Source of the DNA: Anaerolineaceae bacterium
GTDB lineage: Bacteria; Chloroflexota; Anaerolineae; Anaerolineales; Anaerolineaceae
DNA length: 64,000 bases
Assembly: GCA_050946715.1 (NCBI GenBank)
Contig: JBMNVH010000003.1
Location: 53,924-117,923, forward strand
Direction: 5' to 3'
Shown: one piece after another, positions 32,726 through 51,399 of the stretch
Layout of the letters: each line of letters begins with the position of its first letter
How positions within the stretch are numbered: the stretch's first letter is position 1
Translations under genes and position numbers: made by a program
The notes under the pieces: model-generated
Database searches by the model: none
What the model saw: the letters and a program-made list of their open reading frames with translations, nothing else
What the model was told of the DNA's origin: nothing

Positions 32726-32787
32726 AAAACACCTTTCCGTTCAAATGTGAAAATTTAAATCACATACGAAAGAGGAAAGGTGTTTTT
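32726..32787 (+). terminator. Long compound hairpin terminator
   Basis: AAAACACCTTTCC...GGAAAGGTGTTTTT forms the outer stem, enclosing an inner ATGTGA...TCACAT hairpin. Confidence 0.65.
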
Positions 32788-33045
32788 GATAAGCATCAGT
32801 GACACAGGACTTTACCAATTCTGCGGAAACATTTCTTTATATGGTTTGGAAATGCCAATGTTGAACAGGAAAATGATCTGGTTCGCTTGTTCTCAGGATG
32901 CCACAAGCTATGAATTTTGACATTCTGAGAATTGCAGTCAAAGAACAAGAAAGGTGGATCAAGGGCTGAACAACAAAAAACAGATGTGATCCTCCTCTCT
33001 TGTCTGCACGCTAGAAACGGTATAATAGACTATACTGAGTTGCTT

Positions 33046-34839
33046 ATGGAAAACATTAGAAATTTTTGTATTATCGCGCATGTGGATCACGGCAAGTCAA
33101 CGCTGGCGGACCGTATGCTACAAATGACGGGTACGATCTCTGATCGTGAAATGACCGAGCAGGTGCTCGATTCGATGGACCTTGAACGCGAAAAGGGCGT
33201 GACGATCAAGGCTTCGGCTGTTCGCATGGTTTATACGGATCCGGTTGGGAAAGAGTACGAATTCAATCTGATCGATACCCCTGGGCACGTTGACTTCAGC
33301 TACGAAGTTAGCCGCGCTCTTTATGCCTGTGAAGGCGCGATCCTGGTGATCGATGCCACGCAGGGCATTGAAGCCCAGACGCTGGCGAACCTTTACCTGG
33401 CGCTGGATGCTAATCTGGTCATCATCCCGGTTCTCAACAAGGTTGATCTGCAATCTGCCAGGGTCGAAGAAGTGACGCGGGACCTGGTACAGCTATTGGG
33501 TGTTGCTGAGGAAGACATCATTGCCATCAGCGCAAAGACGGGCGTTAATGTGGATAAGGTGCTCGAAGCGGTCGCTCAGCGGGTTCCTGCCCCGGAGGCT
33601 GACAAAGAAAAGCCTTTGCGCGCGCTGGTCTTTGACTCACACTACGATTCCTATAAGGGTGTGATCGCCTACATTCGCGTTTTTGATGGGCGTATCAACA
33701 GCAATGACAAGATCCAAATGATGGCGACGGGGTCAAAAATCGATCCGGTTGAGATCGGTGTTTTTGAACCCGGCATGAAGCCCGTCCCATACCTGGAAGC
33801 GGGAGATGTCGGTTACATCGCTACCGGATTGAAAACCGTTTCGGAATGTAGGGTTGGTGACACGATCACGCACGCAGTCAAACCCGCCGGAGAACCTCTG
33901 CCTGGCTACCAAAAAGCTAAACCGATGGTCTTTGCCGGCGTTTATCCAACCGAAGGTGCGGATTATGGAAGTCTCAAGGACGCATTGGAGAAGCTACAGC
34001 TAAACGACGCCTCGCTGACTTTTGAACCTGAAACCTCCGAAGCGCTGAATTTTGGCTTCCGCTGTGGCTTTTTGGGGCTCTTTCACATGGAAATTATTCA
34101 GGAACGCCTGGAACGTGAGTATGACCTTGACGTTGTGTTTACGGCTCCATCGGTTGAATACAAGGTTGATCTGAAAGACGGCTCCACGATCATTATTGAC
34201 TCGCCGGCTGATCTTCCGGATGAGGGCGAGATCCTTGAAATCTACGAACCCTGGATGGAACTGGAGATTTTCACGCCGACAGATTATTACGGCGTGGTCA
34301 TGGATCTGGTCAAAAAACGACGCGGCATTTACGTCAGTCAGGAATATCCGGCAGCAAATCGGGTCCAGCTCAATTATGAAATCCCCTTATCGGAGATCAT
34401 TGTTGATTTCTTTGACCTGCTCAAATCGAGCACACGCGGTTATGCCTCCATGGATTACCATTTCATCGAGTATCGCGCTGGCGAACTGGTCAAGCTGCAG
34501 ATCCTGATCAATGAAGAACCGGTGGACGCGCTCACTTCGATCGTGCATAAAGGTGATGCTTTCCATAAGGGACAGGCGCTGGTTAGCAAGCTAAAAGGGA
34601 TCATCACCAGCCAGATGTTTGTTGTCCCGATCCAGGCTTACGCGCAGGGTAGGGTCATCTCGCGCGCGAATGTTAAGGCTTTGCGAAAAGATGTTTTAGC
34701 GAAATGCTACGGCGGCGATATCACCCGTAAAAAGAAGCTGCTTGAAAAGCAAAAGCGGGGTAAGAAACGCATGAAGATGGTCGGCAGCGTCCAGATCCCG
34801 CAAGAAGCTTTCATGGCAATTTTGCGCCTGGAGAATTAA
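33046..34839 (+). CDS. lepA: Translation elongation factor 4 (LepA)
   Basis: The product begins [23 protein letters not shown] and contains [12 protein letters not shown] and the C-terminal LepA block [16 protein letters not shown] placed the start at ATG 33046; the ORF-track TTG 32932 adds 38 residues that look non-native. Confidence 0.95.
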
Positions 34840-35864
34840 TGCAGGTCCAGACTGAAAAAAACAACCGATTGATGAAGATCGGTTTACCGATCTTGTTAAG
34901 CGGTCTGGCGATCTGGCTGGTTTGGCGCCAGCTGGATTTTCAGGTTTTATGGGCTGCTTTCAGGCAATTGTCAATCTCATCGATAGCTTTGGTGATATTG
35001 CTTTTTACACTCGGATTGTTTTTGCGAGGTTTGACCTGTTGGATCATCCTAGGACCTAAATTTCTATTTATGGACGCATTTTGGGCAATGAACGTTGGCT
35101 ATTTGCTCAACTCATTCATTCCGCTGCGTTTAGGAGAGTTCGGCAGGGCGGCGATCCTGACCGAAAGGAGCAAAGGTAAAGCCAGCTATATGGAAGCGCT
35201 GGCTTCGATCGTCGCGGAGCGATTCCTTGACTTGCTGACTGGGTTTATGTTCCTCCTGGTAGCACTGCTCTTCTTGTTTAAAAACGATAGATTGGAAAAA
35301 ATTGCCTGGATCGGTTTTGGCGGTCTGGCTTTTAGTCTGGTTCTAATGATCCTTCTGGCTAAGAACAGAGACACGGTCATAAGCTGGTTCAGAGATCGCT
35401 TTTCTGAAACAAGTTGGGTGCAAAAGCGATTGGTACCAGCGTTGGAGCAATTGCTGCTGGGTTTCACCTTTTTTCTGGATGCAAAACGCTTTATTCCTGC
35501 CAGCCTGATCCTGGCAGTAAGTTGGTTTTTGTCGATGCTTGAATACAATGTCCTACAAAACGCAATTTTGGACAGCTCGAAAGCATGGTGGCCCGTTCTG
35601 GTCATACCTGCTGGTGCCTTCGTGAACGCTCTGCCTGCCGCGCCTGGTGGATTGGGCGTCTTTGAAGCCGGCGCGGTTGGCGCGTATGCGCTGGTTGGGG
35701 TTGGAAAAGAACCCGCGCTGGCGATGGCGCTGATCGTTCATTTTGTCCAGATCGCGATTCCGTCGATCTTTGGTATCATCGCATTGTTCATCAGTGGTGA
35801 TAGTTTGGGTTCGCTCATCACCCGGTCAACCCGCTTTCAGGCGAAAAAGGAAGTGACAGAATGA
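34839..35864 (+). CDS. UPF0104 / lysyl-phosphatidylglycerol-synthase-TM-type 'flippase-like' membrane protein
   Basis: The 341-aa polytopic ORF contains YLLNSFIPLRLGEFGRAAIL and a C-terminal LPAAPGGLGVFEAG block. Its ATG overlaps the lepA stop (TAATG). Confidence 0.7.
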   Translation: MQVQTEKNNRLMKIGLPILLSGLAIWLVWRQLDFQVLWAAFRQLSISSIALVILLFTLGLFLRGLTCWIILGPKFLFMDAFWAMNVGYLLNSFIPLRLGEFGRAAILTERSKGKASYMEALASIVAERFLDLLTGFMFLLVALLFLFKNDRLEKIAWIGFGGLAFSLVLMILLAKNRDTVISWFRDRFSETSWVQKRLVPALEQLLLGFTFFLDAKRFIPASLILAVSWFLSMLEYNVLQNAILDSSKAWWPVLVIPAGAFVNALPAAPGGLGVFEAGAVGAYALVGVGKEPALAMALIVHFVQIAIPSIFGIIALFISGDSLGSLITRSTRFQAKKEVTE

Positions 35865-37015
35865 AGATCCTGATTTCCTCTACCTATTTTCACCCTTACA
35901 GTTCCGGACTTTCGGTCTATGCTTTACGTCTGGCTAAGGGGCTGGCGGACCTCGGGCATGATGTGGTTGTATTGACCTCTCAACATGAGAAAAGCTTGCC
36001 CAAGGCAGAACCCTTTGGAAATTTCCACATTGTCCGTGTGCCTGTGATGACCCGATTGTCAAAGGGCGTCATCATGCCGAGTTTGCCAAGGATCGCCAGG
36101 CAGTGGATAACCTGGGCGGATGTGGTCAATCTCCACCTGCCTCAGTTTGAATCCATCGTCTTAAGCAAGATCGCCCGAGAGTTGGGCAAGCCTGTTCTGG
36201 TGACCTACCACTGTGATCTGGAAATGAGCGGCGGGGCTTTGAACAAGCTGGCTGGGAATGTGACCATGCGTTTTGGTGAAGAGGTGCTGCGAGACGCGAC
36301 GCTGATCGTGCAAAATTCGCTTGATTATGCCGAAAACTCTTCGGTACTCTCCAAATATATGGAAAAGGTTGTTGAATCGCCGACTCCTATCATCGTCAAA
36401 ACGGTTTCAGAAGAAAGAGCTGAAAAGTTCAGGCTGGAACATGGCATTGCGAAAACTGACAAGGTGATCGGGCTGGCGGGCAGGGTTGCCAGCGAGAAGG
36501 GCTATGAATATCTCGCGATGGCTTTCCCATCAATTCTTGATAATTTTCCGGAAGCACGGATCGTACATGCGGGCGCCTGGAAGTCTGTGGTTGGCGAAAG
36601 CGCATACCAAAGCCAGATCGAAGCGTACATTCGACCTTTTGGTGAGAAGTGGAGGAACCTGGGCTTCCTGAGCGATGATGATTTTGAGGCTTTCTTCGCG
36701 GTTTGTGATGTTTTGGTTTTCACCAGTCTGAATCGAACCGAATCCTACGGCATTGTCCAGCTTGAAGCGATGACGCAGGGAACACCGATCGTGGCAAGCG
36801 ATCTCCCAGGCGTCAGGCAGCCTGTCCGGCAGACAGGTTTGGGGCGGATCGTTCCCATGCGCGATCCAAATGCGATCGCTGCTGCTGTAATCGAGATTCT
36901 GGGTGAGGGTAGGAAGACGCGTTTTGTGCCAGAAGAATTCCTCGAAAAGTTTCAGCAGGAGGCGGTCGCCAGGCGCAATGAAGCCTGGATGGAGACCTTA
37001 TTAGCCGATGAATGA
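35861..37015 (+). CDS. Glycosyltransferase, family 4 (GT-B fold, WcaI-like)
   Basis: The 384-aa ORF has the N-terminus KILISSTYFHPYSSGLSVYA and the E-x7-E region ESYGIVQLEAMTQGTPIVASD. It overlaps the previous gene with ATGA. Confidence 0.85.
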   Translation: MKILISSTYFHPYSSGLSVYALRLAKGLADLGHDVVVLTSQHEKSLPKAEPFGNFHIVRVPVMTRLSKGVIMPSLPRIARQWITWADVVNLHLPQFESIVLSKIARELGKPVLVTYHCDLEMSGGALNKLAGNVTMRFGEEVLRDATLIVQNSLDYAENSSVLSKYMEKVVESPTPIIVKTVSEERAEKFRLEHGIAKTDKVIGLAGRVASEKGYEYLAMAFPSILDNFPEARIVHAGAWKSVVGESAYQSQIEAYIRPFGEKWRNLGFLSDDDFEAFFAVCDVLVFTSLNRTESYGIVQLEAMTQGTPIVASDLPGVRQPVRQTGLGRIVPMRDPNAIAAAVIEILGEGRKTRFVPEEFLEKFQQEAVARRNEAWMETLLADE

Positions 37016-37814: not shown

Positions 37815-38625
37815 AGTGAGAAAAATCTTTTATTATTTTGGATCAATTTTCACCTTGTTGTTTGGAATTAAAAACTGGCGGGTGCTGCTTTCTATCTTCC
37901 TGGGCAAGCCATTTGACGGCATAAAATGGCTTGAACTGCGACGTGACGACCTCAAGGTCGGTGTGGGCAGCAAAATGGAAGCCTGGTCGGTCAAGGAAAC
38001 TTTGATAGATCGCTTCTATGCCCGTTATGGCACTGAGGTTGAACCAAGCTGGACGGTGGTCGACATCGGCGCGGCGATCGGCGAATTTACCATTGACACC
38101 GCTTTAAAGCTGACTGATGGGATGGTGCATGCATTTGAACCAAACCCAGGCTCGATCAATATCCTTAGGCAAAACACGCGCGCGAATTACCTGAATCGGG
38201 TCACAACTTATAATCTTGGTGTTTGGAGTTTAGCGGGAGAGATACCCTTGAAGTTCCTCAATGACGAACCATTACAGGCTGTCAGCGGTGAAAATGTTGA
38301 GATCGACGATCAGGTTAGGGAAACTACAATACCAGTTATCACCTTAAATGACCTGGTTTTTGAAAAGGTGGGGAAGAAAATCGATCTGATGAAACTGGAT
38401 TGTGAGGGCGCGGAATACGAAATTCTCTTAGGACAAGACTATGAAACTTTCAGCCAGATCGCGCGCATCATCATGGAATACCATGACCTGGATGGGAACC
38501 GCAATTACAAAACCCTGACGAAAACGCTTGAAGAGCAGGGCTATCAAGTGACGCACAGGAAGAATCCTGTCCATTCAGAACTGGGTTATCTTTATGCCGT
38601 TCGCAGGGAATTGGTCAAATCCTGA
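37765..38625 (+). CDS. FkbM-family methyltransferase
   Basis: The product contains VVDIGAAIGEFT, AFEPNP and MKLDCEGAEYEIL. The true start may be the in-frame GTG at 37816, which has GGAGAAAGAG upstream and sits just after the previous stop. Confidence 0.8.
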   Translation: MMKKAPALSTWQGERAKVRKIFYYFGSIFTLLFGIKNWRVLLSIFLGKPFDGIKWLELRRDDLKVGVGSKMEAWSVKETLIDRFYARYGTEVEPSWTVVDIGAAIGEFTIDTALKLTDGMVHAFEPNPGSINILRQNTRANYLNRVTTYNLGVWSLAGEIPLKFLNDEPLQAVSGENVEIDDQVRETTIPVITLNDLVFEKVGKKIDLMKLDCEGAEYEILLGQDYETFSQIARIIMEYHDLDGNRNYKTLTKTLEEQGYQVTHRKNPVHSELGYLYAVRRELVKS

Positions 38626-38643
38626 GCGAACGAAGGTTTTTAA

Positions 38644-40737
38644 ATGGACGAACGCGAGAATGAACTCCAGGAAGATCTGACCTTGCTGGAGTATTTGAAA
38701 AGAAGACTGAGGGGTGATAAGCCCGTCATTTTAGGTGAGCAATCGGTTGTGACTGTTTCTGAGACTTCACAAATCAGCTCACAACGCCCTATCTTCTTTT
38801 TCCTTGCTGCGATTTTTATCCTTCTTGGTCAATTTATCCTGGAATCTTTCAAGGAAACATTCCGCACGCCCGCAATAGTTTTTTATCTGATCGGCGGTCT
38901 GGCATTTGTGCTTGCCAAAAGAAAAGGCGAATTGGATGGATTGTCCTTTTGGAAGGAAAATGGTGTTCCTGTTAAAGAGAATGATGAATCCGAGATTACC
39001 TTCTGCTGGTACTGGCTGGTGCTGGCGATCATATTCTCTTTAGGGGGCGTGATCCTTCTAAAGAATCAAGATTTGATCTGGCTTGTATTTCTGCTGTGGG
39101 GTTTAAGCGTGATTTTTGGTTTGCTTTCATTTTGGGAGTTTGGATCAAAAAGAGAAAGACCAAGCTTTCGTCAGTATGTTGAAAAAGCTTTGGCGGATAA
39201 AGTCTGGCTTTTGGCGGTTTTGGTCACTTTTGCTTCTGTTCTTTTCTTTCAGTTTGTCAAAATTGCAGAGATCCCGAAAGAAATGATCAGCACTCAGGTC
39301 GAGAGCTTTCTAAGCACTTTTGGCATCCTGAAAGGCGATCTGGGGCTGTGGTTCCCGCGCAATCTTGTCAGCGAGCCATTAACGTATTATTGGGGCGCTT
39401 TATTTGGACTGATTACAGGCTCACAATTTGGATATACTGTTTTCAAGGCAAGTTTCGCGATTGCTGGATTGGTTTCAGCCCTTTTTACTTATAAACTGGT
39501 CAGGCTACTTTTTGACCGCGAGACTGGACTGATCGCGACATTCCTGCTCGGGGTTGGCTATTGGGCGTTGATCCAACAAAGAGCTGTGGTCGGCTATGGT
39601 CTGGTCTTGCCCGTTTTAGCACCCGCCTTGTATCATTTTTTCAAGTCCCTATTTGAAGATGATAACAATGCGCACCTGCTGAGCATCCTGTTTGCATGCC
39701 TGGGCATTTTGACCAATAAAGTCTTTTTGATCTTGCCTGTTTTGAATTTGATCATCACGCTTCTGTTTTTTAGAAGCAATTCGAAGCAGAACTCTTCAAA
39801 TCTAATGATAATGCGCATAGGAAAAGGCTTAATGCTGGGGTTGATCATCCTTTTGCCTTTCCTGATCGTGGTCATCAGCAATTTTCAGGCCTGGATTTCT
39901 CCAATATCTAATAATTTGTATATTGCCGAGAATAGTGGAAACCCACTGATCATGTTTCTGAAAAATATGCTATCAGGCTCAGGGATCGCTTTTTGGAATA
40001 ACCGCTCCAGTTGGGTCGATGGTATTCCCTTTCGACCAGTATTTGACTGGGTCAGCGCGGGTTTCTTCCTATTTGGATTGCTTTCAATGTTGTTTTCGAC
40101 AAAAGAGGGTGAGCGCAAAAAGCAACTTGCTTACCTGATCCTTTGGATAGGCTTTTTGATCTATCCATCGCTAAACCTTGCTTTTCCCAACGAAAATCCA
40201 GCAATCGGGAAACATTTGCCGATCCTTTTTCTATCTTTGGTCTTGGCATCCAGGGGAATGAGCCTGCTTTGGTCGAAATTCATGGATCTTCAACTAAAAA
40301 ATGGATATGCAGTAAAGATCCTGCTTGCTGTAGTTTTGATACTTATCATCAGCTTTTCTAATTACAACTTGTTGACAGAAGGATATGCCAAACAATTTGA
40401 CGCATCAGCCTGGAATGCCAGCGAGATGGCGCATGTGATAGAGGTTTATGATCAGGGGATCGAATCAAAAACCAATTCCTTTATCGTCGGGTATCCGCAT
40501 TGGGTAGATGCCCGCGCTGTCGCGATACTGTTGGGAGCGCCTGATGAAGAGCTGGCGCTGATGCCCGAAGAGATCAAAAATACAACAAATACAACAGGGA
40601 CTAAAATATTCCTGCTTAATCCTTTTGATAAGGAAAGCATAGCCAAGTTACAATCTACTTATCCGCAGGGGATCGCCTCGACCTTTCAGAGCCTGAACCC
40701 GGATAAGAATTTTGTGATCTATATCGTAGGTCAATAA
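38644..40737 (+). CDS. Large polytopic membrane protein, GT-C-like (PMT_2/ArnT-like) glycosyltransferase candidate
   Basis: The 697-aa ORF has more than 12 hydrophobic segments, an acidic loop after a TM helix (IPKEMISTQVESF) and a C-terminal ~150-aa soluble domain. The assignment rests on architecture and context only. Confidence 0.5.
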   Translation: MDERENELQEDLTLLEYLKRRLRGDKPVILGEQSVVTVSETSQISSQRPIFFFLAAIFILLGQFILESFKETFRTPAIVFYLIGGLAFVLAKRKGELDGLSFWKENGVPVKENDESEITFCWYWLVLAIIFSLGGVILLKNQDLIWLVFLLWGLSVIFGLLSFWEFGSKRERPSFRQYVEKALADKVWLLAVLVTFASVLFFQFVKIAEIPKEMISTQVESFLSTFGILKGDLGLWFPRNLVSEPLTYYWGALFGLITGSQFGYTVFKASFAIAGLVSALFTYKLVRLLFDRETGLIATFLLGVGYWALIQQRAVVGYGLVLPVLAPALYHFFKSLFEDDNNAHLLSILFACLGILTNKVFLILPVLNLIITLLFFRSNSKQNSSNLMIMRIGKGLMLGLIILLPFLIVVISNFQAWISPISNNLYIAENSGNPLIMFLKNMLSGSGIAFWNNRSSWVDGIPFRPVFDWVSAGFFLFGLLSMLFSTKEGERKKQLAYLILWIGFLIYPSLNLAFPNENPAIGKHLPILFLSLVLASRGMSLLWSKFMDLQLKNGYAVKILLAVVLILIISFSNYNLLTEGYAKQFDASAWNASEMAHVIEVYDQGIESKTNSFIVGYPHWVDARAVAILLGAPDEELALMPEEIKNTTNTTGTKIFLLNPFDKESIAKLQSTYPQGIASTFQSLNPDKNFVIYIVGQ

Positions 40738-40739
40738 AT

Positions 40740-43700: not shown

Positions 43701-46019
43701 GCCTTTGCCCGAATCGTGGGACTCTTGTTGTTCGCGCTATTCGCCTTCAATCTCGGTTCGCTAAAAATTGAAGTAACCCGAGCTTTGCTTATTTATGTCT
43801 TGCTCGCGATAACGATGATTTCAGTAGCTGTGGCAGGCTTCAACCGTAAGAAGCTACAAGATTATATAAAAAACAGATGGAAACTGATCTTAATTGAGGA
43901 AATTGTCTTCCTGATCGCTTTTCTTTTCTTCCTATGGATCCGATATAACAACCCGGATCTGTGGCACCCCTGGCGCGGCGGTGAAAAGCCTATGGATTTC
44001 AGCTACCTCAACGCGGTCATCAAGAGCAGCACGTTTCCAGCTTACGATCCCTGGTTCGCGGGTGGTTTCATTAATTATTACTACTACGGGCAGGTGCTGG
44101 TTGCCTTGCCGATCAAACTGCTTGGCATTGTGCCGGCTGTTGCCTATAACATTTGCCTGGCATTGTGGTACGCGATGCTGGTTGTAGCGGCTTTTTCAAT
44201 TGGCTGGAACCTGACCTGGTTTGTTTTATCCAGAAAAAACTCCGAAACCGAAGCTGTTCCAGCTTCCATTTTACCTTTTTGGGGCGGCATCGCGAGCAGT
44301 CTTCTTCTGGCGTTGCTGGGAAATCTGGGCACAATCAAGGTGCTCAGCGACGGACTGGCGATCCTGGGGTCTAATGGCGCTGATATCACTCAGACGAATT
44401 TCTTTCAATACATCGGCTGGGCAATTCAGGGCATTGCGTCCATAAGAAATGGAGCCCAATTGCCGATCGGTGCCGGAAGTTGGTATTGGAACCCAAGCCG
44501 AACGATTCCAGGCGAGCCGATCACTGAATTCCCATTTTTCACCTTTCTTTATGCCGATTTCCATGCCCATTTGATCGCCATGCCGATCGTGCTGGCGGCG
44601 ATTGGCTGGGGATTATCACTGGTCATGGCAAAGTGGAAAGGTGGTCTCGACTGGAAGAAGCTCCTCAGTACGGCGGTGCCGATCCTCTTTGTCGGCGGCA
44701 TGGTCGTCGGCGCATTGCAGCCCACCAATACCTGGGATTACATCACTTTTACCCTTTTCAATATCATTATATTGGCATATGTGAGTTGGCGGGAATTGCC
44801 CGCGATCAAGGGTGAAAAGCTGCCAAAATTGCTGCGAAAAGCGATCTTGCCAGCTCTTGGCGTTCTTATATTTATTGGATCAAGTCGTTTGTTATATTAT
44901 CGGTTCAATCACAACTTCTTCCCAGGCTACAGCAGTGTCGGCTTTTGGGAAGGACCCAAAACCCCGATCTGGTCTTATCTGCTGCACTGGGGGCTGATCC
45001 TCTTCCTAATTGCTTGGTGGTTTGCCTGGGAGCTGTATCAATGGCTGGCCACAACCAGGTTGTCACAGTTGCCAGCATGGATGAAAAAGAAGCATTATCT
45101 GATCGGTTTTGCGGCTGGGATCGGGACGCTTTTACTTGCTTTGCTGATAATAAAAGTGAAGATCGCCCTTTTCGCGGTTCCACTGGCAACGCTGGCTTTA
45201 TTCCTTTTGGTTATAAAGAAAAACGATGCCAAACGACTGGCGTTTTTCATGATCGGGACTGGCTTGCTGCTGACGATCGTGGTCGAATTGGTTTATCTGG
45301 TCGGGGATGTCGGGCGTATGAATGTGGTTTTCAAGCTCTATCATCAGGCCTGGATGCTGCTTACTTTGCCTTTAGGGTTGGCGATAGTAACACTGATCAA
45401 AGATATGCCGACCTGGAGGCCGAGCCGTCAGTATCTCTTCCAGATCCCGCTCTTCATCCTCGTGTTTATCGCTTTGCTTTTCCCTGTGCTTGCGAGCCAG
45501 GATAAGATGACCGACCGTATGAGTCTGACATCGCCAAAGACATTGGACGGCATGAAATACATGGAGACATCCGTCTACAACATGAATGGGATCGACATGG
45601 ATCTGGCTCAGGACTATTGCGCGATCCAGTGGCTGCAGGATCATGTTGAAGGTTCGCCTGTTATCGTTGAGGCTCAGGCGTACGAGTACCGATGGGGCAA
45701 TCGTTTCACTATTTATACTGGCTTGCCTGGCGTGGTCGGCTGGAATTATCACCAAAGGCAGCAGCGGGCTATTTTGCAGGATAACTCGGTTCAAAACCGT
45801 GTCGATGAGGTCAATGCTTTTTACGAAAGCGGTGACCAGGAATTCGTGAAAGATTTTCTTGAGCGCTATCGCGTAAAATATATTATCGTAGGTCAACAGG
45901 AAGTGGCTGTGTATTCTTACGCTGGCCTGGATAAGTTCCTTGCCTGGGACGGCTTGTTGTGGAATGAGGTTTATCGGGACGTGGGTACGGCGATTTATGA
46001 GGTAATACAAAATGATTGA
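40740..46019 (+). CDS. Giant fusion membrane protein: N-terminal GT-C-like module + ~500-aa soluble domain + C-terminal DUF2298 ('chlor_Arch_YYY') module
   Basis: The 1759-aa ORF is uninterrupted. The N-terminal module carries HLHPDERFLSQV in its first loop after TM1. The C-terminal module (about 43590..46019) carries GGEKPMDFSYLNAVIKSS...YDPWFAGGFINYYYYGQ and GWNYHQRQQR...YRVKYIIVGQQE, and is collinear with the next gene. Confidence 0.75.
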   Translation: MDDNVKSLDTKKKQRRLKPITVILLLMVILIAGASLRMMNTNWDDSQHLHPDERFLSQVIAQIRPVGSISEYFDTEHSVLNPNTHGHTFFVYGTFPLFIIRYVGEWTGQTGYDLNTLIGRQLSATSEIFTILIVFMIAYKLYNQRVALIAAALYAFAVLPIQQAHFMTVDTFTNTFGMLTVLAAVNILTKDPDEREIAGIRGLWKRWSAYLFFGIALGMATASKINAVSLALLLPLVELVRFNREDKFKVGSAILKVGFAGAISFLTFRVLQPYAFTGPGFFNLAINQDWWMGLRNLQTMSTGEVDFPPALQWIRRPDSFAFKNLMVWGVGLPWGISSVLSWIAQVWQIIKKRKLDHAPICLWMLLYFLWQGLAWVSSMRYLLLLYPLMAVITAWGLDRLISKNDNLRIGKLNISSKLISKAGMVITVVVLLSTALWAFAFTRIYTEPVTRVQASEWIYENLEAPINLKMETEAGVESIPAQYRAYTVLFSGQELPLVFSTPVSAYLMELNYPMVQQITTSADLIEYQLSIIDLESGQALNQTPFVASNPLAADGLSRQALLNFNFNQTIRFEAGKLYKFVLTMNTAESQAYVSGVPRLSLYRDDGQVLQEVLPQINEQFNLMHPYSMRISVQKPGTITAVELPMVLDHSMNSGEKTLRLILTSYNNGNSESVSSLVKEKLTNPGDGRGERLSFELEKPLIIEHPQAVDLYLGLDEGEGAIMVSTPGMAFESSWDDALPLPLMGYSPFQPDGSGFFRPDLNFEMYWPDDASKRERFYQILSQTDYIVMSSNRQFGTIPRAPEKYPLSTHFYRELLNCPDEMDTVVCYYEAEAEHLNPEFGFDLIKTFTSYPRLGSWEFNDQYAEEAFSVYDHPKVLIFRKNEYFDSERVLEILNQVDVSKALPLTPKQMDEYKPQSQSGNSDLMLTDEEIAVQQGGGTWSALFDRESVLNKWPWLGVVALYFFFLILGWVAFPIVMLAFPGLDDKGYAFARIVGLLLFALFAFNLGSLKIEVTRALLIYVLLAITMISVAVAGFNRKKLQDYIKNRWKLILIEEIVFLIAFLFFLWIRYNNPDLWHPWRGGEKPMDFSYLNAVIKSSTFPAYDPWFAGGFINYYYYGQVLVALPIKLLGIVPAVAYNICLALWYAMLVVAAFSIGWNLTWFVLSRKNSETEAVPASILPFWGGIASSLLLALLGNLGTIKVLSDGLAILGSNGADITQTNFFQYIGWAIQGIASIRNGAQLPIGAGSWYWNPSRTIPGEPITEFPFFTFLYADFHAHLIAMPIVLAAIGWGLSLVMAKWKGGLDWKKLLSTAVPILFVGGMVVGALQPTNTWDYITFTLFNIIILAYVSWRELPAIKGEKLPKLLRKAILPALGVLIFIGSSRLLYYRFNHNFFPGYSSVGFWEGPKTPIWSYLLHWGLILFLIAWWFAWELYQWLATTRLSQLPAWMKKKHYLIGFAAGIGTLLLALLIIKVKIALFAVPLATLALFLLVIKKNDAKRLAFFMIGTGLLLTIVVELVYLVGDVGRMNVVFKLYHQAWMLLTLPLGLAIVTLIKDMPTWRPSRQYLFQIPLFILVFIALLFPVLASQDKMTDRMSLTSPKTLDGMKYMETSVYNMNGIDMDLAQDYCAIQWLQDHVEGSPVIVEAQAYEYRWGNRFTIYTGLPGVVGWNYHQRQQRAILQDNSVQNRVDEVNAFYESGDQEFVKDFLERYRVKYIIVGQQEVAVYSYAGLDKFLAWDGLLWNEVYRDVGTAIYEVIQND

Positions 46020-48645
46020 TCTTCTAAAGTGGTACCTTTTGATCCAGGCGCTCGGTTTGATCAACCTGCCGATAACGATCTCAGTCTTTCAGAAATTAAG
46101 ATCAAAGGGTGTATTTCTATCCAAAATTTTAGGATTATTGTTATGGGGATTCGTATTTTGGTGGTTGGTGACAATCGGATTGTTGAGAAACGATCTGCCT
46201 TCTGCGCTGGTTGCGATGGGTCTGCTTGCCTTGGTCAACCTATTTTTCCTCAAAAGAATAGGATCAGACCAACTAAGAGAGCAAAGAATTAGTCTCAAAA
46301 GGTTTCTGATCGCTAGTGAGCTTGTATTCTTCATTACTTTTGCTTTTTGGGCGTTGGTTCGATCTACAAATCCGGAGATTATTCACACTGAAAAGTTCAT
46401 GGAGATGGCGTTCATTAATGCGATCCTGAAATCACCTGGATTCCCACCGCATGATCCCTGGCTCTCGGGTTATGGCATTTCTTATTATTATTTTGGCTAT
46501 GTTCTCTCAGCTTTGTTGATCCGTGTCAGTGGGGTTGCGTCATCGGTCGGATATAACCTGGTTTCCGCCTTGTGGTTTGGGATGACCGCTCTGGCGGCGT
46601 ATGGCTTGGTCTGGGACTTTTTCGCAATTCGCAATTCGGATTCGAATGCTTCAACAGAAGGGAACCGACGAGCTTATTATCTTGCGCTGCTTGCGCCGAT
46701 CATGCTCCTGATCGTTTCGAACTGGTTTGGATTGCTGGATGTTCTCCATGCCAGAGGTTTCCTTGGCGAAAAGGCAACTCAGCTGATTAATTTGCCCGCA
46801 CTAAATGCCGAACCCTTTAATTATTCCTGGTTCCCAAATCGGGGCGGCTGGTCCTGGTGGCAGGCCAGTCGCGTTCTACAAGATTATCGTTTGAATGGCT
46901 CAAGCATAGAGATCATCGATGAATTTCCGTTTTTCACCTTTTTGCTCTCGGATATCCACCCCCATCTGCTGGGGATGCCCTTTGTGATCCTGGCAATCGC
47001 GATGGCGTTCAATGCTTTTATGGGCGGTTGGGAGAAAGAAACGATGCTTTTTGGGCGAAAACTATCACTGAATATTCTTAATATTTCTTTGGCGGTCATC
47101 ACCCTGGGCGGCATTGCCTTTTTGAACACCTGGGATTTTCCCTTCTATCTGCTGTTGATCGCCTTTTCGCTGGTCTGGAAGAGTGCGCGAGAGACCGGCT
47201 GGCAGGTCAAGCACCTATGGCGATTAGTGCTATTTGGCCTCGTGGGTGGAGTCATGAGCATCCTTGCCTACCTGCCTTTTTACCTAAGTTTCGCTTCGCA
47301 GGCAGGCGGCATCTTGCCAAGTCTGGCATTTTTCACCAGTGGCATTCAACTCTGGACGATGTTCGGACCTTTGCTTGCGAAGATCTTTGTGTGGCTGCTT
47401 TACCACGAGATAAAAATGAAACGTTTCCCAGGTTTGAACGCCCTGCTGCTAAGCCTGGCGCTTGTTTTCTTTTTGTTCATGGTCGGCTGGGGGATGGGAT
47501 TGCTGGCTGGTCGCATGGAAAATCTGGGTCAACTTTTGAACGCCTTGCAGGGGGCAGAGTCAAACGCCCAGCTGCTCAAGGAAAGTTTGCTCGCGCGGCT
47601 GAAAGCGCCTGCTGCGTTCATCACTTTGTTACTTTTAGTCTGGTTGGCACTTGATCAACTCCTGAAAAAACTTCCAAAATCCGTTGAAAAAACTTCGGAG
47701 GACAAGGCAGAGCCTGTCACTCAAACTGCCAGACCGCAGGCTTTCATCCTGATGCTGATCCTGCTGGGGGCTTTGCTGGTGATCGTGCCAGAGTTTATCT
47801 ACCTGAAAGATCAGTTCGCCACCAGGATGAATACGATCTTCAAGTTTTATTTCCAGACCTGGATATTGTGGTCAATGGCGGCGGCTTTTGGCTTTGGCGA
47901 TCTGTTTTTTGAGGCGAAAGGGCGCTGGAATCGCCTTTTCGCTTTATTGATCGCCGCAGTCGCTTTGCTTGGGCTTGGGTTTTCGATCCATCAAAGGGAA
48001 ATAAGCTTGGCAAAAGCCTTTGGCAGTAATTTCTTAGATTATTTGGTATTATCGATTCCTGTTCTATTCATAATATGGTTTTTATTAAACCTCTTCAAGA
48101 AACAGAGAAGAGCCGCTTTAGGCGTAATCTGTTCTTTCGCTGTGTTCCTTGGTTTGATCTACCCATCCATTGAACTCTGGAATAAGACAGAGGGATTTGT
48201 TCCACAAGACGGCTATTCTTTGGATGGGAAGCAGGATTTTTATCTTTATTCCCCGGATGAGATGCTGGCTGCTGCTTGGTTGCAGAAAGCTCCCTTAGGC
48301 GTCATGGCTGAAGCGGTCTCGGATACTGGCGGCAGCTATACCACCTATAATATAATTTCCACATTTTCTGGCATGCCGACCGTGTTGGGTTGGATCGGGC
48401 ACGAAGCGCAATGGCGTGGTGGATATGAAGAAATGGGATCACGGCAAAATGACCTGCGGGAACTATACAGCACTGCCAGCTGGGAAAAAGCCAAAACTGT
48501 GATCGACATGTATAATATTCGCTATATCGTCGTTGGTGAGTTGGAAAGACAAACTTACAAAGTTGACGTGTCTAAGTTTGAGGTGAATCTGGTAAAAGTC
48601 TTTGATACAAATAAGGTCGATATCTATGAGGTGAGGCAACCTTGA
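46012..48645 (+). CDS. DUF2298 ('chlor_Arch_YYY') family polytopic membrane protein
   Basis: The 877-aa ORF contains HTEKFMEMAFINAILKSPGFPPHDPWLSGYGISYYYFGY and GWIGHEAQWRGG...YNIRYIVVGELE. It overlaps the previous gene by 8 nt. Confidence 0.75.
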   Translation: MIDLLKWYLLIQALGLINLPITISVFQKLRSKGVFLSKILGLLLWGFVFWWLVTIGLLRNDLPSALVAMGLLALVNLFFLKRIGSDQLREQRISLKRFLIASELVFFITFAFWALVRSTNPEIIHTEKFMEMAFINAILKSPGFPPHDPWLSGYGISYYYFGYVLSALLIRVSGVASSVGYNLVSALWFGMTALAAYGLVWDFFAIRNSDSNASTEGNRRAYYLALLAPIMLLIVSNWFGLLDVLHARGFLGEKATQLINLPALNAEPFNYSWFPNRGGWSWWQASRVLQDYRLNGSSIEIIDEFPFFTFLLSDIHPHLLGMPFVILAIAMAFNAFMGGWEKETMLFGRKLSLNILNISLAVITLGGIAFLNTWDFPFYLLLIAFSLVWKSARETGWQVKHLWRLVLFGLVGGVMSILAYLPFYLSFASQAGGILPSLAFFTSGIQLWTMFGPLLAKIFVWLLYHEIKMKRFPGLNALLLSLALVFFLFMVGWGMGLLAGRMENLGQLLNALQGAESNAQLLKESLLARLKAPAAFITLLLLVWLALDQLLKKLPKSVEKTSEDKAEPVTQTARPQAFILMLILLGALLVIVPEFIYLKDQFATRMNTIFKFYFQTWILWSMAAAFGFGDLFFEAKGRWNRLFALLIAAVALLGLGFSIHQREISLAKAFGSNFLDYLVLSIPVLFIIWFLLNLFKKQRRAALGVICSFAVFLGLIYPSIELWNKTEGFVPQDGYSLDGKQDFYLYSPDEMLAAAWLQKAPLGVMAEAVSDTGGSYTTYNIISTFSGMPTVLGWIGHEAQWRGGYEEMGSRQNDLRELYSTASWEKAKTVIDMYNIRYIVVGELERQTYKVDVSKFEVNLVKVFDTNKVDIYEVRQP

Positions 48646-50351
48646 TACAAGAAAGATCAGAACATTTTGAAAAGACAAAGACATTTGGAAAGGATAAGCA
48701 AGCTTTTCTCCTTTTAATTGCAGTTATATTGGGTGTTTTTGTAAGGCTTCTCCTCCTAGATCAGGCAAAATTTACAGAAAGCGAACTGATCCTGAGCCAT
48801 AACGCTCTATTGGCTGCCCGAGGGGTCGCGCAGGAGACCAGCACGGCGCCTGCCTACACTGGTTTGACCGCTTTGTTGTTCTACCTCTTTGGCCCTGGCA
48901 ATTTTATTGCCCGTGTGTGGCCCGCTATCTTTGGCGCATCCATAATTGCTATTCCCTGGTTTTGGAAAGATCTGATAGGTAAGAAAGCCAGCCTGATCCT
49001 GAGCTTTTTGCTGGCAATGAATCCGATTTTTGTGACCTTCTCAAGGGCGATCAATCCAGGTATTTTTGCCATTGGCGGTGTTTTATGGGTTTTGACTTTG
49101 ATCAAAATCAAAAGACCCTATTTGAGCGCTGTGTTTTTAGGGATCTCATTTCTAAGTGGGGCTGCCTTTTGGAATATTGTTCTGATCCTAGGTGTTTTTT
49201 ATCTATTGGCGCGGTTTTTCGTTGGTGAAGAGGCAATTGAAGAAATAAACTCACACTTAGATTTGAGGGCTTTTCTGAAATTTGATTTGATTTTGGTCTT
49301 TCTGGTCACGGTATTTCTTCTTTCCTCCTCATTTTTACTGGAACCAAAAGGTTTTGGCGGTGCGGGAAGCAGTCTTGTAGGCTTCTTCCAACAATTCACT
49401 CAGAACTTTGAGAAACCACTCTATCATCCCATCTATTTATTGCTTGCGCATAGTTACTTCTCAATTGTGATCTATTTTTCGCAATTAATCAAAAAAGACG
49501 CAGTTATGGGAGGAAAACGTATCGGTTTTATGGGGCTCCTGGTATTCATTTCAATCCTTTACGCCACGCTTGTTAGCCGCTCAAGTTTCGAGATGCTGAT
49601 GGTCCCTGTGTTGTTATTGCTGATCGTTGCGGCACAGGCGATCTCTGAAATCAGGATCGATAAAGAGGAAATGAACTTCCTCAATCTTGCTATTTCAGTT
49701 TTTACAATCGCAATATTAATTTACATTACGATAAATTTGCGACGCCTGTCAATTTTGATTTTTGGAAGTCCGCAGTTTATAAGCGTCGCATTAATTATCC
49801 TCGCTGGCGTGATCCTTCTGGCTTCAAGCTGGTGGCTGGCTAAATTTGCGGCACCTGATAAGAATATCGGCAAGGTGATGCTTATTAGCTTGCTTCTATT
49901 GCTGTGCGTTTTGAGTTTTTCAAGTGTATACCGTGGAATCGGTATCGATCAACAATATCGAGCCAATGAATTTCTTGGCAAGAGTGTTTACATGCCAAAC
50001 GATACATATTCCGAAATTTTCGAAGAATTCAATTTGACAGGAAGAAATCTTGCCCAGCTCGGTTCTTATCAGTTAGTCGATCTGCCGGAATATCTCGGAT
50101 GGTATTTTCACGAATTCTCAATATTCTCGCCTTATTCAAACGCAACGCTGGTGCTTTCCCGCAGTTCCGAGATGCCGGGTAGCGATGTCGAATATCGGGG
50201 GATGAACATCGTCCTTGAAAGATCCGCGGATTGGAAAGCAGCTGGTATCAGCAGATATTTCAAGGGATTGTTTGGTACTAAAATGGATTACTTCGATCAA
50301 AAAGCCGTATTATGGATAAAGACCTCTCTTTTCACAGGAGCGAATCAGTAA
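48642..50351 (+). CDS. Polytopic membrane protein, degenerate GT-C-like (TIGR03663-like) candidate
   Basis: The 569-aa ORF has the first loop KFTESELILSHNAL after TM1, an FGPGNFIARVWPAIFG block and about 12 hydrophobic segments. It uses a TTG start with a 4-nt overlap. Confidence 0.45.
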   Translation: MIQERSEHFEKTKTFGKDKQAFLLLIAVILGVFVRLLLLDQAKFTESELILSHNALLAARGVAQETSTAPAYTGLTALLFYLFGPGNFIARVWPAIFGASIIAIPWFWKDLIGKKASLILSFLLAMNPIFVTFSRAINPGIFAIGGVLWVLTLIKIKRPYLSAVFLGISFLSGAAFWNIVLILGVFYLLARFFVGEEAIEEINSHLDLRAFLKFDLILVFLVTVFLLSSSFLLEPKGFGGAGSSLVGFFQQFTQNFEKPLYHPIYLLLAHSYFSIVIYFSQLIKKDAVMGGKRIGFMGLLVFISILYATLVSRSSFEMLMVPVLLLLIVAAQAISEIRIDKEEMNFLNLAISVFTIAILIYITINLRRLSILIFGSPQFISVALIILAGVILLASSWWLAKFAAPDKNIGKVMLISLLLLLCVLSFSSVYRGIGIDQQYRANEFLGKSVYMPNDTYSEIFEEFNLTGRNLAQLGSYQLVDLPEYLGWYFHEFSIFSPYSNATLVLSRSSEMPGSDVEYRGMNIVLERSADWKAAGISRYFKGLFGTKMDYFDQKAVLWIKTSLFTGANQ

Positions 50352-50352
50352 C

Positions 50353-51051
50353 ATGAGTGAAAAAACTTTCAATGACCTTCCCAAAATTATCGCAATCGAT
50401 GGCCCGGCAGCTTCGGGCAAATCGACGATCGGCACCCTGATTGCCAATCAGCTTGGTTATATCTGCCTTGATACCGGGATCATGTATCGGGCAGTGGCAT
50501 TTCAGGCACTGAAAGAGGGCATTAATGTATTCGATGAATTGGCAGTCAGCGAGCTTTCGGAGCGTATCAAGATAGACATTCTTCCAAGCCAGGACGAGGA
50601 TAACCGACAATTCACAGTTTTGATCGAAGGAGAGGACCACACCTGGGATATTCGCACGCCTGATGTGAACAGGGTCGTGTCGGAGGTTTCGGTTTATCCT
50701 CGCGTGCGCACGGCGATGACAGACCTGCAGCGGAAAATTGGTGAGAAAGGCAATATCGTCATGATCGGGCGGGACATTGGTACGGTCGTGCTGCCTAACG
50801 CGGATCTGAAGATCTATCTGGACGCCAGCGTGGAGGTCAGAGCGCAACGTCGTTATATCGAAGACTTAAGTCGCGGTAAGAAAGCTTCTTTTGATGAGGT
50901 ATTGGACTCTCTGCGGCATCGCGATCAGATCGATTCCGGTCGCGCGGTCGCGCCTCTGAAGCCGGCGGATGACGCGATCATTGTTGACTCCGACAAGATG
51001 ACCGTATATGAGGTTGTTGAGCACGTTCTTGGATTGATCCAGAAAAAGTAA
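50353..51051 (+). CDS. cmk: Cytidylate kinase
   Basis: The 232-aa ORF contains IIAIDGPAASGKSTIG, LDTGIMYRA and GRDIGTVV. It starts 1 nt after the previous stop. Confidence 0.92.
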   Translation: MSEKTFNDLPKIIAIDGPAASGKSTIGTLIANQLGYICLDTGIMYRAVAFQALKEGINVFDELAVSELSERIKIDILPSQDEDNRQFTVLIEGEDHTWDIRTPDVNRVVSEVSVYPRVRTAMTDLQRKIGEKGNIVMIGRDIGTVVLPNADLKIYLDASVEVRAQRRYIEDLSRGKKASFDEVLDSLRHRDQIDSGRAVAPLKPADDAIIVDSDKMTVYEVVEHVLGLIQKK

Positions 51052-51077
51052 GCATCAATTATTGAACGTATGCCTTC

Positions 51078-51101
51078 GCTTGTGGTCTCCCGACCACGAG
51101 C
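51078..51101 (+). terminator. Intrinsic terminator after cmk
   Basis: GCTTGTGGTC-tccc-GACCACGAGC forms a 10-bp stem with one G-U pair, followed by a T-rich tract. Confidence 0.55.
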
Positions 51102-51118
51102 TATGTTGTATTGTCTTA

Positions 51119-51345: not shown

Positions 51346-51399
51346 AAATAAGAATTGCTAAAAAGTAAATAGCTTTTAAGCCTGAAATACTGATGCCCA

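Follow-up and report, generated by a model that had tools for sequence, protein, structure and literature searches.

A conserved lepA-to-cmk gene array of Anaerolineales combines PMT-like with DUF2298 membrane modules and probably serves envelope-glycoconjugate assembly

What four very large membrane proteins, encoded between the housekeeping genes lepA and cmk, do for the cell is the question raised by a stretch of 64,000 nucleotides (nt) from an Anaerolineaceae bacterium (Chloroflexota; Anaerolineae; Anaerolineales; GenBank assembly GCA_050946715.1, contig JBMNVH010000003.1, positions 53,924 to 117,923, forward strand), which is referred to here, at its full length, as the window. An earlier note had read the lepA-to-cmk array (33046-51051) as a machine that builds or attaches an envelope glycan outside the membrane. 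According to the analysis reported here, the array is probably an operon for envelope-glycoconjugate assembly at the outer face of the cytoplasmic membrane, which would depend on lipid-phosphate sugars and act through paired PMT-like and DUF2298 modules. The parts of the array, the hairpin that follows it and one gene upstream are listed below; the large proteins are named after their length in amino acids (aa), and matches are given in bits, where possible against the cut-off of the family.

30489..31361, minus strand: predicted UbiA-family polyprenyl-phosphate phosphoribosyltransferase (PPPRS; DPPRS/PPPRS-like), 290 aa; NF008977 260.2 bits against 234, NDxxDxxxD motif (NDLLDLEAD) at N57
33046..34839, plus strand: lepA (EF4 GTPase), housekeeping gene, head of the array; GTP_EFTU 189.8 bits, LepA_C 153 bits
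34839..35864, plus strand: UPF0104 / MprF-type flippase-like membrane protein, 341 aa; PF03706 (LPG_synthase_TM) 127.6 bits against 33.4, TIGR00374 58.8 against 43.2
35861..37015, plus strand: GT4 glycosyltransferase, cytoplasmic, PimA-like, 384 aa; Glycos_transf_1 90.1 bits against 26.4, Glyco_transf_4 57.4 bits
37008..37814, plus strand: S-adenosylmethionine (SAM) methyltransferase of type 11 (MT11), 268 aa; PF08241 (Methyltransf_11) 59.3 bits against 21.2
37816..38625, plus strand: FkbM-family SAM methyltransferase; PF05050 (Methyltransf_21) 69.7 bits against 22.7, TIGR01444 101.8 against 37.7
38644..40737, plus strand: M697, PMT_2-type GT-C membrane protein with a C-terminal outside domain; PF13231 28.1 bits against 26.1 (marginal)
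40740..42077, plus strand: M1759 residues 1-446, PMT/ArnT-like GT-C transmembrane domain; PF02366 (PMT) 34.1 bits against 22.7
42135..43439, plus strand: M1759 residues 466-900, predicted extracytoplasmic beta-sandwich (466-730) followed by an alpha/beta domain (770-900); AlphaFold2 (AF2) secondary structure
43599..46019, plus strand: M1759 residues 954-1759, first DUF2298 / chlor_Arch_YYY module; TIGR03662 488.6 bits (residues 954-1755) against 300.25, PF10060 364.0 against 27.8
46012..48645, plus strand: M877, second DUF2298 / chlor_Arch_YYY module, predicted divergent GT-C fold with a C-terminal globular domain; TIGR03662 446.3 bits against 300.25, PF10060 346.8 against 27.8
48642..50351, plus strand: M569, poorly conserved PMT_2-like membrane protein, putative distant relative of Agl23; TIGR03663 32.5 bits, under the cut-off of 126.25
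50353..51051, plus strand: cmk (cytidylate kinase), housekeeping gene, tail of the array; PF02224 251.1 bits
51078-51101, plus strand: terminator-like hairpin, 10-bp stem with 6 G-C pairs, 27 nt past the cmk stop; consensus match only

All ten genes of the array lie on the same strand, and at each of the nine junctions the neighbours either overlap by 1, 4 or 8 nt or stand 1, 2 or 18 nt apart, as taken from the list of open reading frames (ORFs) and a junction script. TAATG at 34837-34841 joins the lepA stop to the UPF0104 start with an overlap of 1 nt, ATGA at 35861-35864 forms the UPF0104/GT4 junction, overlaps of 8 nt stand at 37008 (GT4/MT11) and 46012 (M1759/M877) and one of 4 nt at 48642 (M877/M569), and the gaps precede 40740 (M1759, 2 nt), 50353 (cmk, 1 nt) and 38644 (M697, 18 nt). 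The ten-gene array, every junction quoted before and the four protein sizes (697, 1759, 877 and 569 aa, with a sum of 3,902 aa) were reproduced in this way. The FkbM ORF opens at TTG 37765, with GTG 37816, 1 nt past the MT11 stop and downstream of a GGAGAAAG-like site, as its likely start; the M569 gene can overlap that of M877 only from a TTG start at 48642, and the lepA ATG at 33046 sits within an ORF opening at 32932. The next gene after cmk, coding for a histidine kinase, is 365 nt away, and the hairpin at 51078-51101, the first-listed and longest-stem site in a scan of 32000-51900 for terminator-like sites, is likely to be the end of the transcription unit. Judged by this layout, the array is probably a single operon. 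A promoter scan gave 25 sites against 24.6 expected from shuffled sequence and was uninformative on internal promoters, whereas Rfam at its gathering threshold gave zero matches in the whole window, no tRNA genes were found in the window scan, and the tandem repeats found in the window had no bearing on the array. The G+C content across the array is uniform (0.43-0.50); horizontal acquisition was considered and rejected because this matches the rest of the window and the synteny is order-wide.

One scan of species-representative genomes yielded 80 related loci, cited below by L numbers. Nearly all are labelled Chloroflexota (Anaerolineae, or 'Chloroflexia' in the record title), with L074 labelled Nitrosomonadaceae, and they include the cultured Ornatilinea apprima (L026) and metagenome-assembled genomes assigned to Brevefilum fermentans and a Leptolinea species. 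Gene order was found to be kept in about 80 Anaerolineales species, at 35-66% identity. For the neighbour counts, six-frame ORFs of the loci were searched with the window proteins, and the denominators are the loci with enough flanking DNA. The M569 homologue stands beside the M877 homologue in 65/71 loci and is followed by cmk (near the M877 homologue in 60/66), while the other genes near the M877 homologue were the M1759 C-terminal domain (64/68), the M1759 N-terminal and middle domains (59/62), M697 (55/59), GT4 (48/57), MT11 (47/57) and FkbM, the last in 9/57 loci and in one subclade only. Among the informative loci, about 60-70 in number and taken from different Anaerolineales species, 55-65 show the order GT4-MT11-M697-M1759-M877-M569-cmk, which argues that the arrangement is not one of chance, and the clustering that had been expected in related genomes is strongly conserved. 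In annotated relatives the typical order is lepA, flippase-like gene, extended short-chain dehydrogenase/reductase (SDR), GT4, MT11, PMT_2, PMT/DUF2298 fusion, DUF2298, a protein of about 570 aa and cmk; lepA also heads the cluster in L001, L014, L022, L039, L066 and L089-L096, and M697 is absent in L001, L014 and L022. In some relatives (L089:14937-15275, L096:14949-15284) an additional small gene, for a DUF952 protein, separates the M1759-type fusion from the second DUF2298 gene. Four Anaerolineae loci (L044, L063, L068 and L078) hold an M877-like DUF2298 gene with no other cluster gene in the stored flanks (5-10 kb upstream), so that some lineages may have further copies away from the cluster or arrange the genes differently.

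The large membrane proteins were resolved into modules of two kinds. Of the first kind, M697 (about 13 transmembrane segments by a crude hydropathy count) and the N-terminal domain of M1759 pass the Pfam gathering cut-offs of PMT_2 and PMT, and their orthologues are annotated as PMT or PMT_2 in precomputed Pfam. The PMT match of M1759 (residues 110-258, 34.1 bits) was obtained when residues 1-500 were scanned alone and went unreported when the full 1759 aa were scanned. M569 gave no Pfam match and, at 32.5 against 126.25 bits, falls short of membership in the Agl23 family, although 25 of its 28 orthologues match TIGR03663 only (best E 8e-18). In hhalign comparisons of profiles built from alignments of the 80 loci, M697 was linked to the M1759 N-terminal domain (97.8%) and to M569 (96.6%), and the M1759 N-terminal domain to M569 (88%), on which basis the three are taken to be mutually homologous. 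By TIGRFAM's description, a TIGR03663 protein beside a DUF2298 gene is the usual pairing, and the earlier note had likened the large proteins to that partner; this holds for M569 alone, distantly and below the cut-off, and not for M697 and the M1759 N-terminus, which match PMT_2 and PMT. Nor does the former label 'function unknown' still apply to TIGR03663, which is now called 'flippase activity-associated protein Agl23' in NCBIfam. The Agl23 of Haloarcula hispanica is a putative hexose-phosphate-dolichol flippase, and the purified protein flips M5GN2-PP-Dol in vitro, translocating it in proteoliposomes, and also rescues yeast rft1-delta (PMC11182771); Agl23 is unmentioned in the main text of the eLife paper on Agl24.

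The second kind is DUF2298, whose PF10060 and TIGR03662 cut-offs are exceeded by both M1759 and M877. The shared DPW/YYY signature and the C-terminal GW...YI(I/V)VG block described before were located in M877 (HDPWLSGYGISYYYFGY and GWIGHEAQWR...YNIRYIVVG) and in the C-terminal half of M1759 (YDPWFAGGFINYYYYGQ and GWNYHQRQQR...YRVKYIIVG), with the YYYxG signature that follows DPW reading DPWLSGYGISYYYFG in M877 and DPWFAGGFINYYYYG in M1759. The M1759 C-terminal domain and M877 are 26% identical over 881 aligned positions (E 6e-62), and the two modules are accordingly regarded as paralogues. From this paralogy and the mutual homology of the PMT-like parts, it follows that the array is best described as five membrane modules, three PMT-like (M697, M1759 N-terminal, M569) and two DUF2298 (M1759 C-terminal, M877). 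M1759 itself, as was overlooked in the earlier reading, is a fusion of a PMT/ArnT-like GT-C domain, a beta-rich domain of about 500 aa that would lie outside, and DUF2298; the same PMT/PMT_2 plus DUF2298 architecture is found in Anaerolineae by the hundred, in proteins about 1,600 aa long. Literature searches for DUF2298, TIGR03662 and 'YYY domain' gave no functional study.

The folds of both kinds were compared with solved structures. The AF2 model of M1759 residues 1-960 (pLDDT 85.4, pTM 0.82) contains a transmembrane domain (17-446), a beta-sandwich region (466-730) and an alpha/beta domain (770-900), and its Foldseek matches in the PDB were headed by AglB (E 7.7e-9), with ArnT (E 7.7e-7, TMt 0.45), Pmt4 (TMt 0.58), STT3, EmbA/B/C, ALG9/12, AftA and PglB also found. 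The AF2 model of M877, built from 43 homologues (pLDDT 84.5, pTM 0.90), matched the C-mannosyltransferase DPY19 best (E 6.5e-5, TM-score 0.33/0.41), followed by AftA (E 4e-3) and ArnT (E 9.5e-3), and its C-terminal domain alone matched the C-terminal globular domain of archaeal AglB (3vu0, TMt 0.51). Both the M1759 N-terminal domain and M877 are thus modelled in the GT-C fold, M877 at TM-scores of only 0.33-0.42, and of the two kinds of module DUF2298 appears by far the more divergent. As had been anticipated, the structure search gave this fold and assigned the large proteins to no characterised family; sequence searches found no PDB relative for any of the four, nor did profile searches for DUF2298 and M569. 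The middle domain of M1759, placed outside by the parity of its predicted transmembrane helices, gave no match in the Pfam scan, generic beta-sandwich matches only in Foldseek and no link in hhalign to any of the other profiles; its alpha/beta part (770-900) carries the highly conserved block AEEAF.VYDHPKV.IF.K.

Conserved residues point to where catalysis might take place. An HPDER motif (H50-P-D-E-R54) after the first transmembrane helix of the M1759 N-terminal domain does not vary among 45 sequences and, in a set of 38, is conserved to at least 85%; it should face outside, in the first outside loop, given the K/R-rich N-terminus and the helix that follows. We take the motif to resemble the loop-1 DE motif of PMT/ArnT enzymes. 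In M697, the conserved P211, E213, S216 and E220 come after a transmembrane helix (E213 and E220 at least 85% conserved), while in M877 the invariant E127, E131 and D148 come after the fourth. An acidic residue at the loop-1 position of GT-C enzymes is present in all four proteins, D52-E53 in the M1759 N-terminal domain, E213/E220 in M697, E48 in M569 and E127/E131/D148 in M877, on what is predicted to be the outer side. For DUF2298, the E127-Y160 loop would lie outside according to the positive-inside rule, the inside loops being K/R-rich. Ninety-six residues are identical in M877, the M1759 C-terminal domain and a Firmicute DUF2298 protein, including E127, K128, D148, W150, Y158-160, R287, E304, D314, H316, H318, N372, D375, E594, R605, K611, H797 and R802; of the signature, D148, W150, Y158-160 and G162 are kept in the Firmicute member. 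An outward-facing candidate active site may be made up of E127/K128, D148 (of the DPW motif), D314-x-H316-x-H318, N372/D375, R605 and K611.

DUF2298 had been described as concentrated in Chloroflexi and Archaea; it is also common in Lachnospiraceae, and an exhaustive profile search gave 8,600 clusters (50% identity, E up to 0.001). On plasmid pNP95 of Pseudobutyrivibrio xylanivorans, a DUF2298 gene lies in a surface-polysaccharide cluster, with genes for GT2 enzymes, a DegT aminotransferase, a GtrII-like 'glucosyltransferase domain' protein, an O-antigen-ligase family protein and a CapD-like epimerase/dehydratase as neighbours. Outside Chloroflexi and Archaea, DUF2298 is again found near glycan genes and again has a paired partner. 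In Blautia and other Lachnospiraceae (L086:7014-11247, L088:5553-9813), the DUF2298 gene overlaps an upstream gene for a membrane protein of about 670 aa without a Pfam match, which shares homology with the DUF2298 C-terminal domain over its last 180 residues (hhalign 95%, E 2e-8), and the pair lies downstream of spoIIGA, sigE and an Amidase_3 gene. A Halarchaeum plasmid match was set aside as archaeal context, since it covers the C-terminal domain only, the gene crosses the record origin and the neighbours are unrelated.

The calls made before for the smaller proteins of the array (UPF0104, GT4, type-11-like and FkbM-like methyltransferases) all lie above curated Pfam or NCBIfam cut-offs. The UPF0104 protein exceeds both cut-offs for the MprF-type flippase-like domain (PF03706, TIGR00374); a PDB sequence search gave no relative, and its gene is kept in most relatives, L089 and L096 being without it. 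The GT4 protein holds both Glyco_transf_4 and Glycos_transf_1 domains, and a PDB search gave the phosphatidylinositol mannosyltransferase PimA as its best full-length solved relative (E 3.7e-17), with BshA second (3e-10); none of the NCBIfam equivalogs scanned reached its cut-off. PDB searches with the MT11 and FkbM methyltransferases were uninformative. In most relatives, a gene of about 342 aa for an extended-SDR epimerase/dehydratase stands between the flippase-like gene (or lepA) and GT4 (L019, L039, L040, L043, L061, L066, L074, L089 and L091-L096, for example L091:4855-5883), and the subclade of the window shows FkbM without the SDR. This SDR lies below every NCBIfam cut-off, with dTDP-glucose 4,6-dehydratase and GalE as top matches at about half their cut-offs; a DprE2-like identity was considered and given up in favour of an extended SDR closest to these two.

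A candidate for the sugar donor was found about 1.7 kb upstream of the array, in a divergent gene that the earlier reading had overlooked. The protein encoded at 30489-31361 exceeds the cut-off of NF008977, the model for decaprenyl-phosphate phosphoribosyltransferase, and holds the NDxxDxxxD motif of PPPRS, whose activity it is predicted to have, and the orthologues of L089 and L096 reach 269 and 273 bits on the same model. It is the first gene of a minus-strand operon (27548-31361, gaps of 4, 4 and 35 nt) for the UbiA-type protein, mevalonate kinase (TIGR00549, 233 bits against 163), an archaeal-type isopentenyl-phosphate kinase (NF040647, 158 against 120) and dGTP triphosphohydrolase, the two kinases of which point to the alternative mevalonate pathway. 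The block of UbiA, mevalonate kinase and isopentenyl-phosphate kinase genes adjoins the cluster in 4/8 relatives (L089, L090, L093 and L096), is absent from L092 and L094, and is indeterminate in the other two. PPPRS-type enzymes make polyprenyl-phosphate-ribose-5-phosphate, which is then dephosphorylated and optionally epimerised by DprE1/E2 or a GalE-like SDR, giving a lipid-linked pentofuranose used only by GT-C enzymes (PMC11127046). PPPRS, a flippase and a GT-C enzyme, with or without an SDR epimerase, form an established route for adding pentofuranoses outside the membrane, as in mycobacterial arabinan synthesis, Pseudomonas pilin arabinosylation and Citrobacter O-antigen ribosylation or xylosylation (PMC11127046). 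At the present locus PPPRS-like, flippase-like and GT-C genes co-occur, and a phosphoribose phosphatase (HAD-type PRP or PAP2) was not identified beside them; neither it nor a DprE1/E2 homologue was seen in the window. The UbiA-type protein may hence supply the donor, in the form of a lipid-linked pentofuranose; its position suggests a link to the array.

From these families, folds and gene orders we infer a donor, an acceptor, a product and a pairing of modules as follows. Inside the cell, the PimA-like GT4 would use a nucleotide sugar to glycosylate a lipid acceptor in the membrane, the sugar or the lipid-linked intermediate would be modified by one or two SAM methyltransferases and, in most relatives, the extended SDR would tailor a sugar. 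The MprF-type flippase-like protein, possibly with the Agl23-like M569, may then carry the lipid-linked species outward, where the five GT-C-fold modules would pass sugars from lipid-phosphate-linked donors, the candidate being polyprenyl-phospho-ribofuranose from the adjacent UbiA-type enzyme, to the growing acceptor. The modules may act as PMT-like/DUF2298 pairs, one fused (M1759) and one made from adjacent genes (M877 then M569), with M697 as a dispensable extra; DUF2298 would be a very divergent GT-C glycosyltransferase, and the beta-sandwich region of M1759 may bind the glycan polymer in the manner of the carbohydrate-binding modules of Emb and AftD. With this many GT-C modules and a beta-sandwich domain, the product is more likely to be an oligo- or polysaccharide (lipoglycan or wall glycan) than a single sugar linked to protein. 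The methylated product, monoderm envelope and constitutive expression proposed in the earlier note are likewise putative. A bolder form of the proposal, in which Anaerolineales would carry an essential, partly O-methylated pentofuranose (ribo-, arabino- or xylofuranose) polysaccharide or lipoglycan, built outside the membrane by a two-module GT-C enzyme of a type not recognised before (PMT-like plus DUF2298, fused or paired) with the donor from the adjacent UbiA-type enzyme, is speculative and considered rather unlikely.

A scheme of this kind would work like known extracytoplasmic pathways that depend on lipid-phosphate sugars and would not be surprising in principle. The three-component systems (GtrA/B/C, ArnC/EF/T, CsbB/GtcA/YfhO) consist of a polyprenyl-phosphate-sugar synthase, a flippase and a GT-C enzyme, and their pentofuranose version of PPPRS, a MATE flippase and GT136, in some cases with an SDR epimerase (Kelly et al. 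2024, PMC11127046). The array resembles them in its GT-C-fold enzymes with an acidic motif in a predicted outward loop 1, in the flippase-like protein of the operon, in the UbiA-type phosphoribosyltransferase next door and in the extended SDR of most relatives. Unlike them, the array has five GT-C modules instead of one, two of them DUF2298, a GT4 in place of the GT2 synthase and an MprF/UPF0104 flippase-like protein instead of GtrA, SMR or MATE, and it is found order-wide among housekeeping genes and not as a variable serotype-modifying add-on; the PPPRS gene is divergent in a mevalonate-pathway operon, with no phosphoribose phosphatase or DprE1/E2 seen in the window. In the mycobacterial assembly of phosphatidylinositol mannosides, lipomannan, lipoarabinomannan (LAM) and arabinogalactan, the GT4 enzymes PimA/PimB' work inside, the GT-C enzymes PimE, MptA/B/C, EmbA/B/C and AftA-D work outside, and DPPRS (Rv3806c) feeds decaprenyl-phosphate-arabinose. 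The array shares with it a GT4 whose best solved relative is PimA, several GT-C enzymes in series and a DPPRS-like gene adjacent, and with Emb and AftD an outside beta-sandwich domain, Emb and AftA being among the Foldseek matches. It differs in lacking membership, at the sequence level, in GT53, GT85, GT87 and GT89, in that neither DprE1/E2 nor phosphatidylinositol synthesis was seen here, and in its host, a Chloroflexota member and not an Actinobacterium.

Single modules can be compared likewise. M569 is like Haloarcula hispanica Agl23 in that it and 25/28 orthologues match TIGR03663 only and in that it adjoins a DUF2298 gene, and unlike it in its score (32.5 against 126.25 bits), with the Agl23 work concerning archaeal dolichol-linked sugars. 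The PMT/ArnT-type GT-C enzymes (GT39/GT83) are approached by Pfam matches above the cut-off (M697, M1759 N-terminal), by the GT-C fold and by a conserved D-E pair in loop 1, whereas the matches are marginal (28 and 34 bits), there is no MIR domain, and one copy, that of M1759, is joined to a beta-sandwich region and to DUF2298. STT3/AglB/PglB and DPY19 are the best structural matches, AglB for the M1759 N-terminal domain and DPY19 for M877, with the AglB C-terminal globular domain similar to the M877 C-terminus; against this, TM-scores are only 0.3-0.5, sequence similarity is lacking and no WWDYG, DxD or TIXE motif was identified in the array modules. By sequence, bona fide membership extends only to the uncharacterised DUF2298/TIGR03662 and, marginally, to PMT/PMT_2.

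Several observations weigh against the proposed glycan assembly. For DUF2298, the Foldseek TM-scores are low (0.33-0.42) and hhalign gave no link between its profiles and the PMT-like profiles, nor do sequence profiles tie it to any GT-C family or PDB entry, for which reason homology of sequence to PMT_2 is not claimed. M569 has only about 20 positions at least 85% conserved (including E48, R91 and R135) and may be non-catalytic. Family scans revealed no GT2-type polyprenyl-phosphate-sugar synthase in the window, and we know of no GT4 enzyme that makes polyprenyl-phosphate-sugar donors. The UbiA gene is transcribed divergently and shares its operon with mevalonate-pathway genes, and the Firmicute DUF2298 neighbourhoods inspected contain no UbiA gene. 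Among the relatives, the flippase-like gene is missing from L089 and L096, MT11 and GT4 were undetected in about 10/57 loci, and FkbM is limited to its subclade. Lastly, synteny in this order is high in general, and synteny within one order is no proof of a functional link, for the UbiA gene in particular, because lepA, cmk, the histidine kinase gene and rpoC are equally conserved neighbours.

The alternative that survives best, though held to be a doubtful one, is protein glycosylation, in which O-glycosylation of secreted or surface-layer proteins on their emergence from the membrane would fall to the PMT-like modules, and DUF2298 would be oligosaccharyltransferase-like or extend glycans on protein acceptors. 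The Pfam PMT family, whose cut-off the M1759 N-terminal domain exceeds, is that of the protein O-mannosyltransferases, the top Foldseek matches are protein-modifying GT-C enzymes (AglB/STT3 and Pmt4 for the M1759 N-terminal domain, DPY19 and the AglB C-terminal domain for M877), and Agl23, the nearest named relative of M569, acts in archaeal protein glycosylation (PMC11182771). However, the fold cannot name the acceptor, because ArnT, Emb, Aft and ALG rank with similar Foldseek scores; moreover, bacterial protein O-mannosylation, as known from Actinobacteria, needs a single PMT, five GT-C modules with a beta-sandwich domain are rather what one would expect if a glycan is polymerised and branched, and the array itself encodes no candidate target protein.

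Less probable again is that some GT-C-like modules, or all of them, lack transferase activity, and that M569, possibly with DUF2298, would be a scramblase or flippase for lipid-linked sugars or a non-catalytic scaffold or chaperone for fewer true enzymes, an idea that partly overlaps with the envelope-glycoconjugate model. It draws on the translocation of a lipid-linked oligosaccharide by purified Haloarcula Agl23 (PMC11182771), on the M569 orthologues, which match the Agl23 family only and conserve few residues, and on DUF2298 having no detectable sequence link to catalytic GT-C families. In DUF2298, however, acidic, histidine and basic residues that stay invariant across phyla stand in a dense pattern typical of an active site, and the catalytic DE-type motif is kept in the M1759 N-terminal domain, while a dedicated flippase-like protein is already present in the array and M569 lies far under the Agl23 cut-off. 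That the genes do not form one system, being a conserved housekeeping neighbourhood in which the GT4 and methyltransferase genes and the large membrane proteins serve unrelated pathways, is very improbable in spite of the equally conserved lepA, cmk, histidine kinase and rpoC, which have no evident glycan role, and of the accessory genes (flippase-like, SDR, FkbM, M697, DUF952) varying between relatives, given nine consecutive junctions that overlap or span at most 18 nt, the physical fusion of PMT-like and DUF2298 parts in M1759, membrane-glycan-type functions for all eight internal genes, and, in another phylum, the presence of DUF2298 within a polysaccharide cluster and its pairing with a partner.

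Other features of the window were recorded in passing. Upstream of lepA, a 231-aa ORF (32008-32703, plus strand) has an N-terminal helix resembling a signal or anchor and matches nothing in Pfam or NCBIfam. The AT-rich spacers on either side of this ORF (31362-32007, 646 nt; 32704-33045, 342 nt) are unusually long; in relatives its position is taken by a gene for a TlyA-like S4/FtsJ methyltransferase (L089, L090, L096), sometimes with an MFS transporter (L091, L095). Downstream, rpoC (1492 aa, GTG start; region 51417-58415) is preceded by the histidine kinase gene and not by rpoB, which was absent among the window ORFs scanned against Pfam, and the order cmk, histidine kinase, rpoC recurs in many Anaerolineales loci (L001, L003-L031, L091, L095). 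The recA ORF (15549-17060, minus strand) encodes 503 aa with the RecA domain from residue 166 and overlaps the upstream DUF1015 ORF (16717-18039, minus strand) by about 340 nt; translation of recA probably begins well past the first start codon of the ORF. A dip in G+C to 0.386 at 14001-16000 (about 0.47 elsewhere) coincides with a 389-aa ORF (14127-15296, minus strand) without a Pfam match. Topoisomerase I (23209-25665, plus strand) has an N-terminal DUF5679 domain, and a lysine-rich 33-nt tandem repeat (2.2 copies, 23473-23545) lies near the 5' end of its gene.

The Anaerolineae are filamentous bacteria dominant in anaerobic digesters and sediments, whose envelope chemistry is essentially unknown; a literature search on their envelope gave nothing relevant. 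An order-wide operon among housekeeping genes suggests a core, possibly essential, envelope polymer in this class, and the locus offers candidate catalytic residues, partner proteins, a possible pentofuranose donor and a cultured carrier, Ornatilinea apprima. DUF2298, a sizeable family across Chloroflexota, Lachnospiraceae and Archaea without a sequence relative in the PDB, appears from this locus as a divergent GT-C fold repeatedly fused to or paired with a PMT-like partner. If the assembly proposed here is true, multi-GT-C assembly of the mycobacterial type, outside the membrane, would extend to another phylum; were the pentofuranose version also true, an arabinogalactan- or LAM-like polymer would exist outside Actinobacteria, and DUF2298, with about 8,600 sequence clusters, would have its first function.

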